64,000 nt of DNA from Clostridia bacterium (GTDB lineage: Bacteria; Bacillota; Clostridia; Saccharofermentanales; Saccharofermentanaceae), in NCBI GenBank assembly GCA_024403775.1, contig JAKSRE010000008.1:22096-86095 (forward strand). Direction: 5' to 3'. Under the pieces are notes generated by a model. That model worked only from the letters and a program-made list of their open reading frames with translations, made no database searches and was not told the origin of the DNA. Made by a program: the position numbers and the translations under genes. Positions 7,381-64,000 of this stretch are shown piece after piece (position 1 is the first letter of the stretch; the number at the start of each line of letters is the position of its first letter).

Positions 7381-7420
7381 GGTTATAAGTCCCCCCCCGG
7401 CGCTTTTGTTATGGTTATGT
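7381..7420 (+). terminator. intrinsic terminator
   Basis: GC-rich hairpin agcgtcggaggg-ttataagt-ccccccccggcgct followed by ttttgtt. Confidence 0.6.
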
Positions 7421-7466
7421 GGAGGGTGCGGGTGAGGAGATTGTGGATTTTAAAGTCTTGGGATTA

Positions 7467-8036
7467 AAAGTCTATGTATGTGGTCTAGGTAGCCTAGACC
7501 AGTGACCTGGAATTTAAGGGTTAAAACGCCCAAAGTCTATGTATATGGTCTAGGTAGCCTAGACCAGTAACCTGGAATTTAAGGGTTAAAACGCCCAAAG
7601 TCTATGTACATGGTCTAGGTAACCTAGACCAGTGACCTGGAATTTAAGGTCTAAAACGTCAAAAGTCTATGTACATGGTCTAGGTAGCCTAGACCAGTAA
7701 CCTGGAATTTAAGGGTTAAAACGCCCAAAGTCTATGTACATGGTCTAGGTAACCTAGACCAGTGACCTGGAATTTAAGGTCTAAAACGTCAAAAGTCTAT
7801 GTACATGGTCTAGGTAGCCTAGACCAGTGACCTAGAATTTAAGGGTTAAAACGCCAAAAGTCTATGTACGTGGTCTAGGTAGCCTAGACCAGTGACCTAG
7901 AATTTAAGGTCTAAAACGCCAAAAGTCTATGTATGTGGTCTAGGTAGCCTAGACCAGTGACCTAGAATTTAAGGTCTAAAACGTCAAAAGTCTATGTACA
8001 TGGTCTAGGTAGCCTAGACCAGTAACCTGGAATTTA
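7467..8036. repeat. tandem array of 9 type-A units (65-bp period) each with the hairpin ggtctagg-tag-cctagacc
   Basis: Unit starts (aaagtctatgta) were indexed by hand at 7467, 7532, 7597, 7662, 7727, 7792, 7857, 7922 and 7987. Confidence 0.97.
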
Positions 8037-8041
8037 TGACT

Positions 8042-8183
8042 TTCACGGTGAGATGTCGCGGTAGCCGGTACACTCTACCGCGGATTTGAGGTCAAAACAG
8101 CGATTTTTCACGGTAAGATGTCGCGGTAGCCGGTACACTCTACCGCGAATTAACGGTACAACGTTACGGTAACCGTCACATGC
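8042..8183. repeat. two type-B units (65-bp period, hairpin cgcggtag-N10-ctaccgcg) plus one diverged B-like (C') unit
   Basis: The ttcacggt units start at 8042 and 8107. They are followed by aacggtacaacgttacggtaaccgtcac. The same modules recur at 41.1 kb and 62.7 kb. Confidence 0.9.
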
Positions 8184-8362
8184 ACGCCCCGATTCCTCCG
8201 CCACTACTACCACTTACAAGGCTGCTACCATAAACTTAGACGCCACTGTCAACCTGTCCCACCACCGCCTGGTCCGCTGTCACTATCATAATCGAATCAA
8301 ACTAATTATCCATTAGAACTTATTGGTTTATAATAATTAATAAAAAAACAAAGAGGCATAAA

Positions 8363-8896
8363 ATGGTCTATTTTAGTAATGAAGAAATATTAATTCGTGA
8401 TATGGTTTCAAGTGATGCGCAGATAATAACAGATTTGGAGATTAAGCAGGGTTGGAATCAGACTATAGATAAATATAATAAGCGACTTAAGGATCAGGAA
8501 GACGGAAAATCTTATGCGATTGTGGCTGAGTATAAAGGATGCATCGCTGGATATATAAATGTTTATTTGAATTCTGATGAGGGACCTTATAAAAATCTTG
8601 GGATACCTGAGATAGTGGATTTGGGTGTTCTTAAAGAATACCGTAATAAAGGTATCGGAAATAAACTACTGGATATTGCCGAAGATATATCTTCTAAGCA
8701 TTCTGATCAAGTTTTCTTAGCGGTTGGACTTCATAATGGATATGGAGCAGCTCAGCGTATGTATGTAAAGCGTGGATATATTCCTGATGGATCTGGCGTG
8801 TGGTATGAAGGTCAGGTTTTACCACAATATGAGAAATGCGTTAATGATGATAGTTTGGTATTATTTTTTGCGAAAAGCTTGGCTAAAGAGAATTAA
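8363..8896 (+). CDS. GNAT family N-acetyltransferase
   Basis: 177 aa. Acetyl-CoA binding motif EYRNKGIGNKLL (R/Q-x-x-G-x-G/A). Confidence 0.8.
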   Translation: MVYFSNEEILIRDMVSSDAQIITDLEIKQGWNQTIDKYNKRLKDQEDGKSYAIVAEYKGCIAGYINVYLNSDEGPYKNLGIPEIVDLGVLKEYRNKGIGNKLLDIAEDISSKHSDQVFLAVGLHNGYGAAQRMYVKRGYIPDGSGVWYEGQVLPQYEKCVNDDSLVLFFAKSLAKEN

Positions 8897-25344: not shown

Positions 25345-26478
25345 ATGCATTTTTTTATTAAGCATAAAGATTTGAACATATTGAAGTTTGAATTAATACA
25401 TAACTTTGCCGATCCAGAAGTACAAATTGAATGGATTAATGAGGACTTTAGAGAATTTCTTCCACTAGATTTAGAACTTACGAACGAGGGTGTTGCTAAG
25501 TGGCTTAAGCATAGAACAATACCTAAGAACAGAGCGTACGTAAATAACTTTCTTTCAAAATGTGGCCTTAGTATAAATAGACCTATGGATATTATATCTG
25601 TGTCTAAGGGGCTTAGTCTAAATGATGTTTACTGGGTTGTAGAAGAAGGCTTTGATGGGTGTTTTGACAGGTATAATCTATACGAGAATAATTTTAGTCA
25701 GATTTTAGCGTTGATTGCTTTTACTGGTTACGGTAGTTCTATTAGAAGTTCTCTTGCATCATGCCCTGAGTTTACAACAAATGGTAATTTGCCTAAATGT
25801 TGGAGAAGAGAATCAGGAAAGGTATACCTTTATAAGGGTGGAACTTCTGGGGCTTCAAATACTGGTAATGAACCTTATTCCGAATACTATGCATCTCAGA
25901 TTGCAAAGGCTATGGGTATAAATGCAATTGACTATAGCATTAAAAAATGGAATGGTGAGTTGTGCTCAGTCTGTGAGATATTCTCTGGTTTAGATTATTC
26001 ATTTGTTCCAGTTGGAAGGCTAGTAACAAAGGGAGGAATGGAAGCGGTAAGAGCCTTCTATGAAGGTTTAGGTCCTGAATTTGTAGATGCTCTTAATGAA
26101 ATGCTTGTATTTGATGCCGTTATCTGTAACACTGATAGACATTTTGGTAATTTTGGAGTTTTGGTTGATAACAAAACCAATAAGATAGTTTGTCCTGCTC
26201 CTTTATTTGATCATGGTAATTCTCTTTTCAATTTCGCTGGAGGATTGGACTTAGAATCTAGTGAAGCTTTTCAGGAATATGTTGATACTCTTTTACCAGC
26301 TACATATGACGATTTTATTTCTACTGCAAAAATGTTCATGACTGACAAAAATCGAGAGCAAGTTAGACACTTGTTGGATTATAAACTGAAAAAGAATGTA
26401 AGATATAACGTTTCAAATGAACGATATAAACTTATAAATTCTCAAATAATTAAGCGTGCCAAACTGTTGCTTGAATGA
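25345..26478 (+). CDS. HipA-like serine/threonine kinase domain protein (solitary, no adjacent HipB)
   Basis: 377 aa. Catalytic-loop-like CNTDRHFGNFG (DRHxxN) and the downstream FDHGNSLF. The gene is visibly more AT-rich than its neighbours. Confidence 0.7.
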   Translation: MHFFIKHKDLNILKFELIHNFADPEVQIEWINEDFREFLPLDLELTNEGVAKWLKHRTIPKNRAYVNNFLSKCGLSINRPMDIISVSKGLSLNDVYWVVEEGFDGCFDRYNLYENNFSQILALIAFTGYGSSIRSSLASCPEFTTNGNLPKCWRRESGKVYLYKGGTSGASNTGNEPYSEYYASQIAKAMGINAIDYSIKKWNGELCSVCEIFSGLDYSFVPVGRLVTKGGMEAVRAFYEGLGPEFVDALNEMLVFDAVICNTDRHFGNFGVLVDNKTNKIVCPAPLFDHGNSLFNFAGGLDLESSEAFQEYVDTLLPATYDDFISTAKMFMTDKNREQVRHLLDYKLKKNVRYNVSNERYKLINSQIIKRAKLLLE

Positions 26479-26612
26479 TTTATGTGTATGAGAAATATAG
26501 GCATGAATAGCACCTGCTATTTGTGTCTATATTTTTATATATTTGACTTCTGACTGTAATATTTTTCTTTTAGAATGGTGAAAGAGAAACTATACATCGG
26601 AGGTTATTCGTA

Positions 26613-27242
26613 ATGTCTGAAGAAGAATTGATTTCAAAGCAGCAGTTATTAAGAGCTGCAAAAATCTCATACGGAACTTTATACCGCTGGAAGAGAATGA
26701 ATCTCATTCCTGAAAGCTGGTTTATTCATAGAGCTACAAAAACTGGACAGGAGACATTCTTCCCAAGAACCAAGATTCTCACAAGAATTCAGAGAATCCA
26801 GGAACTTAAGGGTGAGCTTACTGTTGAGCAGATGCAGGAGTTGTTCTCCGCAAATGTTAAGAGCTTCGTAATTCCACGCAAGGATTTTGAGGAATTGGAG
26901 CTTGTATCTGCAACATCACTTAAGGCATTCAACTGCGTATTCCCAGAGAAAACACAGTTCGACTTTAATGATGTTTTCGTTATGTATGTTGTAGAGCATC
27001 TTTTGAGACTTTCTGGTCTTTATATCGAGGATGCAAAGCAGGTAGTAAGAATGCTTTGTAAGTATTTGCCATGCGAGACAAGTAAGGATTATCAGCTTTT
27101 GCTTCTTAGAAAGCTTGGTGTTCCAATGACACTTCTTGTAAGAGGTGACGAGGACATCCTTCTTGAGGATCAGACAGAGATCATTGCCTGCGCAAATCTT
27201 ATTGAGTTTGAAGAGGCACTTAAGGAACAGCTCATTGCTTAA
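26613..27242 (+). CDS. MerR-like helix-turn-helix protein (DUF4004-type)
   Basis: N-terminal HTH ISKQQLLRAAKISYGTLYRWKRMNLIPESW. The remainder is uncharacterised. Confidence 0.6.
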   Translation: MSEEELISKQQLLRAAKISYGTLYRWKRMNLIPESWFIHRATKTGQETFFPRTKILTRIQRIQELKGELTVEQMQELFSANVKSFVIPRKDFEELELVSATSLKAFNCVFPEKTQFDFNDVFVMYVVEHLLRLSGLYIEDAKQVVRMLCKYLPCETSKDYQLLLLRKLGVPMTLLVRGDEDILLEDQTEIIACANLIEFEEALKEQLIA

Positions 27243-27261
27243 TTGGTAGGGGGAACGGACA

Positions 27262-27777
27262 TTGACGATTCAGGAAAAAGAAGAATTGATTTTAGTATTG
27301 TCTGCTCTTAGTGAGCCTGTGCGTATCCGCATTGTTCAGCTCATTGCCGAAAATGGTGAATTATGCGCCAAGGATATTCAGGCTAATTTCAGTATTACGC
27401 AGCCAACCATGTCTCATCATATGAATATTCTTACTGAAAGAGGAATTATCGACAGTCGTAAAGAAGGTCGTAGTATTTTCTATTCAGTAAATAAAGAGAA
27501 TATTAACCTGCTTCGTGATATGCTTTATGAACTCACTATTCCACCAATTATCATTACTAATGAAGAAGTAAAGCGCAATATCATTAAGCGTAATAGCAAA
27601 CCTTCTGAGATTAAGATTAATGGTGCTCAGCTTAAGAAGAGTTCATCTGTTCCAAAGCCAAAGAATGCAATTGAGATTCCAGATGTTGCAGAGATGAAGA
27701 AGGCTAAGAAAAAGAAGAGCGACAAGAAGAAAAAATCTAAAGATAAAGAAAAAGATTCAAAGAAGAAAAAGAAGTAA
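27262..27777 (+). CDS. ArsR/SmtB family transcriptional regulator with poly-lysine C-terminal tail
   Basis: Winged HTH LSEPVRIRIVQLIAENGELCAKDIQANFSITQPTMSHHMNILTERGII. The tail is KKAKKKKSDKKKKSKDKEKDSKKKKK. TTG start. Confidence 0.8.
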   Translation: MTIQEKEELILVLSALSEPVRIRIVQLIAENGELCAKDIQANFSITQPTMSHHMNILTERGIIDSRKEGRSIFYSVNKENINLLRDMLYELTIPPIIITNEEVKRNIIKRNSKPSEIKINGAQLKKSSSVPKPKNAIEIPDVAEMKKAKKKKSDKKKKSKDKEKDSKKKKK

Positions 27778-40958: not shown

Positions 40959-41000
40959 GTGGTTTTTGTGTTGTGTGGGATATTGTGGTTATTTATGGAT

Positions 41001-41119
41001 TAGAACATGAAAAGTCTATGTACATGGTCTAGGTAGCCTAGACCGGTGACCTAAAAATTAAGGGTTAAAACGTCAAAAGTCTATGTACATGGTCTAGGTA
41101 ACCTAGACCAGTAACCTGG
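41001..41119. repeat. two type-A 65-bp units
   Basis: aaagtctatgtacatgg starts at 41001 and 41066. Same consensus as at 7.5 kb and 62.8 kb. Confidence 0.95.
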
Positions 41120-41300
41120 AATTTTGATTTTCACGGTAAGATGTCGCGGTAGCCGGTACACCCAACCGCGAATTTGGGGCCAGAATAGCATTTTTTCACG
41201 GTACAATGTCGCGGTAGCCGGTACACCCAACCGCGAATCTGAGGCTAAAAGCACGATTTTTCACGGTAAGATGTCGCGGTAGCCGGTACACCCAACCGCG
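41120..41300. repeat. three type-B 65-bp units
   Basis: ttcacggta starts at 41120, 41185 and 41250. Core sequence gatgtcgcggtagccggtacacccaaccgcg. Confidence 0.95.
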
Positions 41301-41371
41301 AATCTATGAATTAATCAGTGTCAAGGTCCAACTAATTGCGTTATAGACTTTGTACAACCACGATGCCATTC

Positions 41372-41555
41372 ACCTACCGACAAAACTAACAGTACAAGTG
41401 ACGGTTACCGTAACATCCTACCGTCATTTTAGGCTATTTACTGACCAAACTAACAGTACAAGTGACGGTTACCGTAACGTCCTACCATCATTTTAGGCTA
41501 TTTAACGACAAAACTAACTGTATAAGTGACGCCAACCGTAAAGTCTTACCATTAA
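41372..41555. repeat. three type-C units (about 64-bp period), inverted B-like modules
   Basis: aaactaac starts at 41373, 41437 and 41501. The core gtgacggttaccgtaac is the reverse complement of gttacggtaaccgtcac seen at 8.17 kb and 62.73 kb. Confidence 0.9.
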
Positions 41556-41800
41556 TTCACCCCTTTCATCCCCAAATCAGTAAATCTCGCATTCTCTTAC
41601 CCAGAAACTCAAAGTAACTCCAGCACATCTTCCCAATTTCAATCCCAATTCCAATCCCAATCCCATTCCCGCTCCTAATTCCAAAAACAATTCTCAACCT
41701 CGCGCAAGTCTTACACAAAAAACATTCTCACACCAGATCGCGTAAGCCACCACTACTTCCAGGAGTACAAGATCCTACAATCAGCGGCACAAACCACCAT
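41548..41800 (+). other. G-depleted, C-rich non-coding tract (rut-like; C3-tract run at 41622-41660)
   Basis: Hand count for 41561-41680: 44 C and 6 G out of 120 nt. No ORF of 60 aa or more. Confidence 0.7.
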
Positions 41801-41877
41801 TAAATCTGCGAATTAATTCCTTTGTGCAACCTGCAAAAATATAAAAGAAATTTGTTTTGTAATTTCTTTGAAATATT

Positions 41878-41906
41878 GAAAAAAATGTTGCAATTTAACC
41901 GAAACA
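41878..41906 (+). promoter_or_regulatory. candidate sigma-A promoter of the mraZ/dcw operon (TTGCAA-17-TAAAAT)
   Basis: ttgcaa at 41878-41883, a 17-nt spacer, and taaaat at 41901-41906. The inverted repeat aaatgtt/aacattt spans the -35 element and spacer. Confidence 0.55.
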
Positions 41907-41976
41907 TTTGTAAAATCATTGTGTCAGAGGGATAAAAAGTTACAAAAAGTTGTGTTTGAGTGTCGTTTTGTGGTTG

Positions 41977-42053
41977 AATCGGGATGAAACAGTAAACAGT
42001 AAGCGGTAAGCAGTAAGCGGTAAACAGTAAACGCCGAACGTTAAACAGTAACC
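41977..42053 (+). repeat. heptanucleotide tandem repeat (consensus AARCRGT, about 11 units) in the mraZ leader
   Basis: Units in order: aaacagt aaacagt aagcggt aagcagt aagcggt aaacagt aaacgcc gaacgtt aaacagt aacctgt aagcgta. The repeat decays further downstream. Confidence 0.85.
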
Positions 42054-42147
42054 TGTAAGCGTAACCAGCAAATTGCAAAGGTAAACAGCCCTAGCAATTA
42101 GCTAAGTTAGTTTCTTCCAATCAACTTTAGGGCTTAACCAAGAACAA

Positions 42148-42190
42148 CCATCGTTATCTTTTATTGATTAACGATGGCTTTTGCTTTCTT
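42148..42190 (+). terminator. terminator-like hairpin within the mraZ leader (attenuator or 3' end of a leader RNA)
   Basis: ccatcgtta-N12-taacgatgg followed by cttttgctttctt, 57 nt upstream of the mraZ ATG. Confidence 0.55.
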
Positions 42191-62589: not shown

Positions 62590-62620
62590 TTAAGTTATTT
62601 ATTAAGATTGGTTTTAATAA

Positions 62621-62658
62621 CTGTCTCAAGGTTATATGGCTTTGGGACAGTTTTTTTG
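62621..62658 (+). terminator. intrinsic terminator
   Basis: ctgtctcaa-N12-ttgggacag (one G-U pair) followed by ttttttt. Confidence 0.8.
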
Positions 62659-62671
62659 TTGATGGATGTTT

Positions 62672-62750
62672 TTCATGGTAGGATGCCGCGGTAGTTGGTA
62701 CACTCTACCGCGGATTAATGGTAAGACGTTACGGTAACCGTCACTTACAC
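62672..62750. repeat. one type-B unit plus one C' unit
   Basis: ttcatggtaggatgccgcggtagttggtacactctaccgcgg followed by attaatggtaagacgttacggtaaccgtcac. Confidence 0.9.
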
Positions 62751-62773
62751 ACTTATTTAATGAATAAGACGTA

Positions 62774-63148
62774 AAAGTCTATGTACATGGTCTAGGTCGC
62801 CTAGACCGGTAACCTAGAATTTAAGGCCAAAAATGCCAAAAGTCTATGTATGTGGTCTAGGTAGCCTAGACCGGTAACCTAGAATTTAAGGCCAAAAACG
62901 CCAAAAGTCTATGTACATGGTCTAGGTAGCCTAGACCAGTAACCTGGAATTTAAGGCCCAAAACGCCAAAAGTCTATGTATGCGGTCTAGGTAGCCTAGA
63001 CCAGTAACCTAGAATTTAAGGCCAAAAATGCCAAAAGTCTATGTACATGGTCTAGGTAGCCTAGACCAGTAACCTAGAATTCAAGGCCAAAAACGCCAAA
63101 AGTCTATGTACATGGTCTAGGTAGCCTAGACCAGTAACCTGGAATGTA
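62774..63148. repeat. tandem array of 6 type-A units (65-bp period)
   Basis: Unit starts at 62774, 62839, 62904, 62969, 63034 and 63099. Confidence 0.97.
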
Positions 63149-63153
63149 TGACT

Positions 63154-63200
63154 TTCACGCTACGATGTCGCGGTAGCCGCGACATCAAACCGCGGATTTC
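63154..63200. repeat. terminal B-like unit containing a perfect 10-bp-arm palindrome
   Basis: gatgtcgcgg-tag-ccgcgacatc at 63164-63186. The A-to-B junction cctggaatgtatgactttcacg matches the junction at the other loci. Confidence 0.85.
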
Positions 63201-63272
63201 ATATAGCTATGCCACTTTTTTCTATTCAAAAGATGTATAATTAGAATATATGAATTAATGAGAGGTTATTTT

Positions 63273-64000
63273 ATGCTTCTTGGTGCCAGAATTATAAATT
63301 ATGACATATTTGATGATGACATTATGGGTTGTCTCATGGAAGACTATCCTGATGGACTTCGCATGACAAGACTTACAGCTATGATTGGACGTAATCAGAC
63401 TGGTAAGACTTCATTTATTGACAGTTTGAATTTCGTAAAAGATACGGTCAGAAGAAATGTTACTGAGAGTTCAACTAATCATGGAAGACCAGGATTTTCA
63501 AAACTAGTAATTGATAACACAAATGAAGCAGTTTTTAAGCTGTATTTTAAACTTCCTTCAATTGATCCAGCGTATAAATATATTCTTACCCAGTATGAAT
63601 TAAGTGTAAAAGCCAATGCTTTTGGAAGTCCAGAGATTAGTTCTGAGAAGCTTTATATGCTTAGTAAAAATAGCGATGAGACTTATACCAAGACTTCCAT
63701 TATGGAGATAACAAATGGGGAAGGTTTTATCATTGGTAAATCTGGTAAAGAAGAAGTTGAGCTTGAGGATAAGGCAGTTACTGCGCTTGGAACCTTTGGT
63801 AAGATTACCAAATATTCTGTTATCTGCAGCACATACCGTGAGATTATGAGATGGTTTTTCTGCAGATTTTCGGCGGAGAATAAGAGTACATATTTTGCTG
63901 ATGGCAATGCGCCTGGAGCACATAAGCACCTTAACAGCGACGGAACCAATGTAGGTAATGTGCTTTTGTATCTTAAATCTCTTGATGAGAGAAAATATAA
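63273..64000 (+). CDS. AAA_21/ABC-like ATPase, 5' part only (runs off the window)
   Basis: My own translation from ATG 63273 is open to the window end. Walker A is GRNQTGKTS, and a late DGTNVGNVLLYL segment is typical of AAA_15/AAA_21 proteins as I recall them. It is absent from the ORF track because it has no stop. Confidence 0.7.
   Translation, partial: MLLGARIINYDIFDDDIMGCLMEDYPDGLRMTRLTAMIGRNQTGKTSFIDSLNFVKDTVRRNVTESSTNHGRPGFSKLVIDNTNEAVFKLYFKLPSIDPAYKYILTQYELSVKANAFGSPEISSEKLYMLSKNSDETYTKTSIMEITNGEGFIIGKSGKEEVELEDKAVTALGTFGKITKYSVICSTYREIMRWFFCRFSAENKSTYFADGNAPGAHKHLNSDGTNVGNVLLYLKSLDERKY

Follow-up and report, generated by a model that had tools for sequence, protein, structure and literature searches.

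The tandem repeats that lie directly upstream of an AAA ATPase gene in the 64,000-nt stretch of Clostridia DNA analysed here (contig JAKSRE010000008.1, positions 22,096 to 86,095; hereafter the window) are probably one copy of a lineage-restricted, non-coding, modular tandem-repeat family, a BOX/BIME-like 'hairpin minisatellite' that is likely selfish or neutral. Units of the family, designated A, B, B', C and C', occur at three loci of the window, and the copy next to the ATPase gene is called locus 3. The family adds one more example to a familiar class of intergenic repeats in bacteria, and it forms no part of the ATPase system downstream. A survey of stem-loop repeats recorded 92 families in 40 genomes, of which 67 had not been described previously (PMC2267715); because such families are common, a new one in an uncultured species is expected and not surprising (PMC2267715).

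An earlier note on this DNA had read locus 3 as a B unit, a C' unit, an array of A units and a degenerate B unit. Profiles searched with nhmmer confirmed this order, and the A-unit starts and the 65-bp period given in that note proved correct to within 1 nt (Tandem Repeats Finder, TRF; a register shift). The features of locus 3 and of its immediate flanks are as follows:

62660-63215, + strand: locus 3 inserted block, 556 bp, in the order B, C', A x5.7 (65-bp period), B'
62619..62659, + strand: intrinsic terminator of the upstream 157-aa gene (stem-loop 62619-62652, 15-bp stem, T-run); its T-tract TTTTTTTGT ends at 62659
62660..62666, + strand: short G/T-rich lead-in TGATGGA ahead of the first unit
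62667..62731, + strand: B unit, stem CGCGGTAG / CTACCGCG with a 10-nt loop
62713..62772, + strand: C' core and short AT-rich spacer hairpin, near-palindrome GACGTTACGGTAACCGTCAC
62773..63148, + strand: A array, nhmmer 74-78 bits per unit
63149..63213, + strand: B' unit (degenerate B), nhmmer 63153-63199, 35.7 bits
63216..63223, + strand: imperfect second T-tract copy TTTTTTCT at the right junction
63236..63275, + strand: TATAAT box (63236-63241), ribosome-binding site and ATG (63273) of the HEC-01A-like AAA_15/AAA_21 ATPase gene

TRF describes the A array as a 65-bp repeat at 62773-63145 (5.7 copies, 93% matches, score 648). Five full A units begin at 62773, 62838, 62903, 62968 and 63033, and a sixth, beginning at 63098, is cut at about position 50, where B' joins. 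In each A unit a ~20-bp interrupted hairpin forms around GGTCTAGG-TAG-CCTAGACC, and the linker AATTTAAGGCCAAAAAYGCC comes after it. The B unit (profile match at 62670-62731, 62.7 bits; also colinear in alignment A3 and folded) shows several C-to-T changes relative to its counterparts at loci 1 and 2, and the C' core (62713-62757), which is colinear with B in the alignment, is matched by the C model on the opposite strand (nhmmer, 37 bits). The perfect palindrome reported earlier in the terminal unit is indeed there: B' holds a 10+3+10 palindrome, GATGTCGCGG-TAG-CCGCGACATC, at 63164-63186. Compared with B, the 10 nt that follow GGTAGCC have been swapped for the complement of the 5' arm, while the old 3' arm ACCGCGG persists downstream; the resulting unit folds at -27.7 kcal/mol (z of -4.4). 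The A unit shares this design, with the perfect arm CCTAGACC followed by a leftover ACCTAGA.

No unit copies beyond the three loci were found in the 64-kb window with nhmmer profiles built from the units, and all A and B units lie on the + strand. The other two loci are:

7406..8335, + strand: locus 1, with a G/T-rich leader, A x9, B x2, a C' core and a C/A-rich, G-poor tail
40971..41819, + strand: locus 2, 849 bp, with a leader, A x2, B x3, a spacer, C x3 and a C/A-rich tail

In locus 1 the nine A units occupy 7466-8036 (8.8 copies by TRF), the two B units 8037-8166 and the C' core 8147-8184, and the locus begins at the terminator tail GGCGCTTTTGT (read by eye). The two A units of locus 2 lie at 41010-41124, the three B units at 41125-41319 and the three C units at 41375-41566; TRF returned B as a 65-bp repeat (41128-41305, 2.8 copies) and C as a 64-bp repeat (41375-41552, 2.8 copies). 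This block is flanked by TTTTTGTG on the left (40963-40970) and by CTTTGTG on the right (41820-41826). Over the three loci the number of modules ranges from two to nine for A and from one to three for both B and C. The A-to-B junction is common to all of them, as had been noted, and the locus-specific A variants are likewise real: A units are 0.93 identical within an array as against 0.85-0.89 between arrays, and the variants sit in the linker.

The limits of the inserted blocks can be read from relatives in which the corresponding sites are empty (L016 and L017, ~81% nucleotide identity, for locus 3; L024, ~81%, and L025, ~71%, for locus 2). Each of the three loci begins at the tail of a strong intrinsic terminator. 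In L016 and L017 the gene order around locus 3 is as in the window, the array is absent and the terminator tail passes straight into the ATPase promoter, TTTTTTTGT being followed directly by AAATTAAAAGTTGTATAAT. The filled site in the window reads TTTTTTTGT, then TGATGG...556 bp...CAC TTTTTTCT, then ATTCAAAAGATGTATAAT, so that the left junction of the block is the end of the terminator T-tract (62659). The stretch from the TATAAT box to the ATG of the ATPase gene (63236-63275) is host sequence, kept in the empty site and outside the element. Similarly, L024 and L025 have short intergenic regions at the locus 2 site and no block. The empty junction of L024 is TTTTTTTGTG joined to CAAGTTGCAAAAAT and the filled site in the window is GGTTTTTGTG...849 bp...AATTC CTTTGTG followed by CAACCTGCAAAAAT, with a right flank that is 96% identical to L024 from 41821 onward. 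Since it is missing from the empty sites, the whole block (leader, arrays and, at locus 2, the C/A-rich tail) is extra DNA. At both loci it separates the upstream terminator, T-tract included, from the promoter of the following gene and leaves the two signals intact. Empty sites have a single T-tract and filled sites two imperfect copies (locus 3: TTTTTTTGT and TTTTTTCT; locus 2: TTTTTGTG and CTTTGTG); the pair may be either a 6-9 bp target-site duplication or junction microhomology, and the two readings are equally good.

These comparisons alter part of what had been claimed about the boundaries. The loci were said to start within 15-50 nt of a terminator, but the empty sites at loci 2 and 3 put the start of the block directly at the T-tract. 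Most of the shared signature TTTTGTTRTGG belongs to the tail of the host terminator: 'TTTTGT' is likewise the ending of terminators that are unoccupied or come from other species, and this part of the boundary motif is therefore host sequence. The view that locus 3 is a modular element rather than a product of slippage holds for its defined boundaries at terminators; it does not hold for the interior, as slippage or unequal exchange does appear to shape the arrays (see the 130-bp duplicate and strain L004 below). For locus 1 the right boundary has no definable junction, because the intergenic DNA of the sister species cannot be aligned and the neighbouring GNAT gene is missing there as well. 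This GNAT acetyltransferase gene (8363-8896) is absent between the same neighbours (AMP-binding and 135-aa genes) in sister species L027, from which the array and the gene together make a difference of ~1.7 kb.

The A, B, B' and C' units are colinear in a MAFFT alignment that is nearly gap-free (65 of 70 columns ungapped) and, judged from their sequences, are versions of one 65-nt unit. Constant throughout the alignment are the linker GAATTTRAGGYYAAAAC, GGTA (columns 24-27) and ACC (columns 41-43); the common plan consists of a helix, NNNNGGT-(14 nt)-ACCNNNN, and after it a linker rich in A. The C units (64 nt) stand outside this alignment and are tied to C' by the profile match of the core, in opposite orientation. 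RNAalifold finds one helix common to all aligned types, of 7 bp, pairing columns 20-26 with 41-47. In this helix 97.6% of the cells pair, compared with at most 42% in controls with a slid partner, and three of its pairs are altered on both sides (e.g. G-C to U-A, C-G to A-U; 10 cells), giving a covariation score that was reached by 0 of 500 shuffles, although the units are paralogous and the number of independent events is hence small. Because the changes on both sides preserve pairing, it is the inverted repeat, and not its sequence, that is kept. The units are not terminator look-alikes, since no U-tract directly follows the stem.

The palindromic make-up of the units is also apparent in tetranucleotide counts over the whole window (1-64000), with the arrays taken as 7398-8335, 40964-41835 and 62655-63225. 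CTAG occurs 39 times outside the arrays where 209 are expected (ratio 0.19) and 41 times inside the 2.4 kb of arrays. The same avoidance trend is seen for CCGG (0.22 outside, 8 sites inside), CGCG (0.41 and 17) and GTAC (0.52 and 24), so that the units are built of tetranucleotide palindromes shunned by the rest of the genome.

Strain comparisons indicate how the arrays change. The strains of the same species all carry the arrays, and their short-read contigs (97.5-100% nucleotide identity) break off in the first units at all three loci, as is to be expected of multicopy tandem DNA. At locus 3 one longer contig, L004, has the order B, C', C', A..., with C' present twice at a 65-bp period. Its make-up differs from that of the window, which means that unit content varies between strains. 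The locus-specific linker variants are identical in L004, from which it follows that each array evolves mostly on its own. Within locus 1, segments at a 130-bp offset are 96% alike as against 92-93% at a 65-bp offset, which points to duplication of two-unit (130-bp) blocks; units 3 and 5 are identical. No units were found in ~106 kb of related species (71-82% nucleotide identity). Being fixed within the species and absent from these relatives, the insertions predate the sampled strains and postdate the split from the nearest available species. In one further contig (L008, SRR29445157) the locus 3 terminator runs directly, 70 nt past the end of the gene for the 157-aa protein (counted from its stop codon), into a sequence that stands in place of the array and has an open reading frame with an NPNCSTI motif, typical of aspartate-semialdehyde dehydrogenase. 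The join reflects either another arrangement in that strain or an assembly chimera.

We propose that a piece of array would have been seeded at each terminator by a transposition-like or microhomology-mediated event at the T-tract, an event that would also fix its orientation. Later growth and shrinkage may have come about by replication slippage or unequal recombination, and the hairpins may have been reshaped by intrastrand template switching that 'perfects' a quasi-palindrome, as the sequences of B and B' suggest for the step from one to the other. The persistence of the arrays would most likely be that of selfish or neutral DNA at a safe, transcriptionally quiet site. Any effect would be secondary at most and fall on read-through transcripts, on which the hairpins could act as roadblocks or give protection against 3' exonucleases and the C-rich, G-poor tails could load Rho.

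Several observations weigh against this proposal. The compensatory changes in the helix mark a constrained hairpin, which fits a selected function (as RNA or in recognition by an enzyme) as well as it fits a palindrome-directed mutational bias. No insertion polymorphism was seen within the species, all three loci being filled in the strains, and no new insertions were found at two other strong terminators (5421 and 27790) in any covering strain contig; as these terminators are unoccupied throughout, there is no support for recent mobility. The T-tract 'duplication' is a short, imperfect, low-complexity sequence. When all leaders and tails were aligned locally in either orientation, with shuffle controls, neither terminal inverted repeats nor conserved end modules emerged, and no type of transposase can be named. 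The unit census amounts to three loci within 64 kb. The earlier claim that the units are co-oriented with the genes is accurate in that all A and B units are on the + strand, but it rests on only these three loci, and nearly all window genes are on the + strand as well.

The leaders and tails have features of their own. Both tails are C/A-rich, with a G content of 14% in locus 1 (8185-8330) and 9% in locus 2 (41567-41819); in the latter, positions 41631-41670 form a (TCCCAA)n microsatellite. In the leaders of loci 1 and 2, by contrast, G and T abound and C is scarce. Neither leaders nor tails showed similarity to the units. The idea that the G/T-rich leaders are decayed B units with C-to-T changes was dropped after a shuffle test (p about 0.1).

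Among the alternatives, we considered that the units are REP/RAYT-like or IS200/IS605-like, that is, folded as single-stranded DNA of the lagging-strand template and recognised by an HUH (Y1) transposase encoded elsewhere, which would insert them in one orientation beside T-tracts and so build the arrays. We judge this unlikely. It would account for the conservation of the hairpin through compensatory changes between unit types and for the single orientation of all A and B units. The tetranucleotide GTAG, which is conserved in REP elements, is constant in the GGTAGCC centre of A, B and B'. The GC skew of the window (+0.15) makes the + strand the lagging-strand template. On this strand the A hairpin has three polymorphic pairs, U-A/U-G or C-G/U-G, that stay paired (G-T in DNA), whereas on the - strand they would be mismatched (98.6% of A-hairpin cells paired on + versus 94.6% on -). 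However, B units fold slightly better on the - strand; as A favours + and B favours -, the evidence on the folding strand is weak and mixed. REP clusters and REPINs are typically inverted pairs, whereas the arrays here are strictly direct, and GTAG is in the loop rather than 5' of the stem. Insertion of HUH elements produces no duplication, but here both block ends have a T-tract. A scan of window open reading frames revealed no transposase gene of any type, and the lack of insertion polymorphism within the species counts against this explanation too.

A bolder proposal, which we hold to be improbable in much the same degree, is that of an orientation-specific, terminator-targeting mobile element without terminal inverted repeats, in which the unit would be a recognition module for an HUH/RAYT-like or reverse-transcriptase-based enzyme acting on single-stranded DNA or RNA and the insertions would be self-amplifying, or else that of arrays cut into unit-length hairpin RNAs with a cellular role.

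That the arrays are functional RNA as such, transcribed, by read-through or from a promoter of their own, into a multi-hairpin molecule that is processed (e.g. by RNase III or RNase Y) to unit-length hairpins or acts as a sponge or stabiliser, appears distinctly unlikely. The A units do fold as hairpins with a z of -2.4 to -2.9, their polymorphisms are compatible with wobble pairing preferentially on the + (sense) strand, units and genes point the same way and there is covariation across unit types. Within A units, however, no double-sided covariation was found. The arrays come directly after strong intrinsic terminators and no promoter-like site reads into them; unit number and order vary freely; Rfam gives no match beyond chance even at E <= 5; and the absence of the family from the nearest species means that there is no conserved function in the group.

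Arrays of binding sites on double-stranded DNA for a dimeric protein (nucleoid-associated, partition-like or regulatory), with the palindromes as operators, are in our view very unlikely. Each unit does contain a palindrome (8+3+8 in A, 10+3+10 in B', ACGGTWACCGT in C) at a regular 65-bp spacing, and a CGGTA/CAGTA motif recurs in B units, in C units and in heptamers of the mraZ leader (see below). Nevertheless, the sequence of the palindrome differs by unit type at the same position, which fits conservation of a hairpin and not of one site; the loci have no neighbouring gene in common, the family is absent from the sister species and no candidate binding protein is encoded nearby.

The earlier note had stressed that locus 3 directly precedes the AAA ATPase gene (63273-64000), whose product matches the PADLOC candidate defence family HEC-01A (AbiL/AriA-like AAA_15/AAA_21). 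In the sister species (L016, 10597-12465) the ATPase gene is followed by HEC-01B and has the same promoter, and the array is absent. The neighbours of the three loci are unrelated: an acyl-CoA synthetase gene and the GNAT gene at locus 1, FtsW with small open reading frames and MraZ at locus 2, and the 157-aa protein and the ATPase at locus 3. The link between array and ATPase is therefore incidental, since the sister species has the gene and its promoter without the array and the other loci have unrelated neighbours. It is accordingly extremely unlikely that the array is a cis-regulatory or guide-like part of an HEC-01-like system, or a CRISPR-like array: it ends 20 nt before the TATAAT box and its 65-bp period is within the CRISPR range, but the same units also adjoin the GNAT gene and mraZ, no Cas family was found in the open reading frames scanned (the flanking genes being housekeeping or HEC-01-like), and a CRISPR array proper is rejected because the whole 65-bp unit is 85-100% identical between copies and there are no unique spacers. 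In the sister species HEC-01A and HEC-01B together make a two-gene candidate defence system situated between core genes (the CoaD region and HemN/HrcA/GrpE).

The database searches gave no family to which the units could be assigned. Rfam 15 returned 0 matches for the whole window at the gathering score, and at E <= 5 loci 2 and 3 gave only chance miRNA-like and rli51 matches (20-25 bits versus cut-offs of 48-67) and no match to the CRISPR-DR families; no tRNA or tmRNA was found. No similarity to phage and plasmid records was detected with blastn, and the exact A, B and C cores gave nothing, or chance matches inside high-GC sequence, in IMG/VR. With the A core only, a search of 185,579 representative genomes (19-mer) yielded one isolated match with unrelated flanks, read as chance, and the JGI metagenomes three isolated matches, again with unrelated flanks. 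Within the collections searched, the unit is thus a fragment of no known mobile element.

The hairpin-minisatellite reading gains from comparison with known intergenic repeats. BOX elements of Streptococcus pneumoniae and S. suis are boxA-(boxB)n-boxC composites, intergenic, mostly downstream of genes, gene-oriented and with predicted stem-loops (PMC3049150); their copy number varies between strains and S. suis has extra module types (PMC3049150). Compared by described design, the present family resembles BOX in having distinct modules, one of them in a tandem array of variable number, and in being non-coding, intergenic and gene-oriented. It differs in having neither conserved terminal modules nor inverted-repeat ends (boxA/boxC), and in that all modules are paralogues of one 65-nt unit, abut a terminator T-tract and are found in one species-level lineage. 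With REP/BIME (PU) sequences it shares mosaics of palindromic units and linkers, intergenic clusters at 3' ends, arrays of up to about a dozen units and a conserved hairpin; BIME units, however, alternate in orientation, whereas all A and B units here are direct, the 65-bp unit is longer and GTAG is in the loop. The MIRU variable-number tandem repeats of Mycobacterium tuberculosis likewise occupy several intergenic loci with units of 40-100 bp, show variants particular to a locus and differ in unit content between strains. MIRUs lie inside operons and carry small reading frames that overlap neighbouring genes, in contrast to the present unit, which at 65 bp is not a multiple of 3 and is found after intrinsic terminators, around a strong hairpin. 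MITE and SPRITE-like elements are short non-autonomous insertions in intergenic safe sites near gene 3' ends, and the blocks here may have a short duplication at their junctions; they differ from the present family, which has no terminal inverted repeats and a tandem interior.

The origin and spread of lineage-specific stem-loop repeats are rarely pinned down, and the present case is a tidy example of the seeding and remodelling of a hairpin minisatellite, with clean empty sites, T-tract junctions, three paralogous unit types and a B-to-B' event. In practical terms, short-read assemblies of this gut species break at the arrays, which repeat finders could mistake for CRISPR; the arrays suggest no new function for the defence-like ATPase.

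The window itself is chromosomal DNA from a metagenome-assembled genome (MAG) of a Saccharofermentans-like member of the Clostridia and contains a dcw cluster. Its genes include those for FtsW, MraZ, RsmH, Mur ligases, FtsQ, FtsZ, NrdR, a two-component system, Nth, RecG, RsmD and CoaD, and homologues at 71-74% identity bear the names Saccharofermentans sp. or Clostridiales bacterium. In the mraZ leader, to the right of locus 2, there is a promoter-like TTGCAA-17-TAAAAT at 41888-41916, a heptamer array (ARCRGTA)n at ~41987-42080 and, just ahead of mraZ (42247), a hairpin with a T-run at ~42136-42185. The heptamer stretch, which may be a species-specific microsatellite or an operator array, is absent from the mraZ leader of the sister species, which is otherwise 93-96% identical. 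Elsewhere in the window, genes for a HipA-like kinase, a DUF4004 protein and an ArsR-type regulator lie upstream of a convergent MscL gene (25345-27777).

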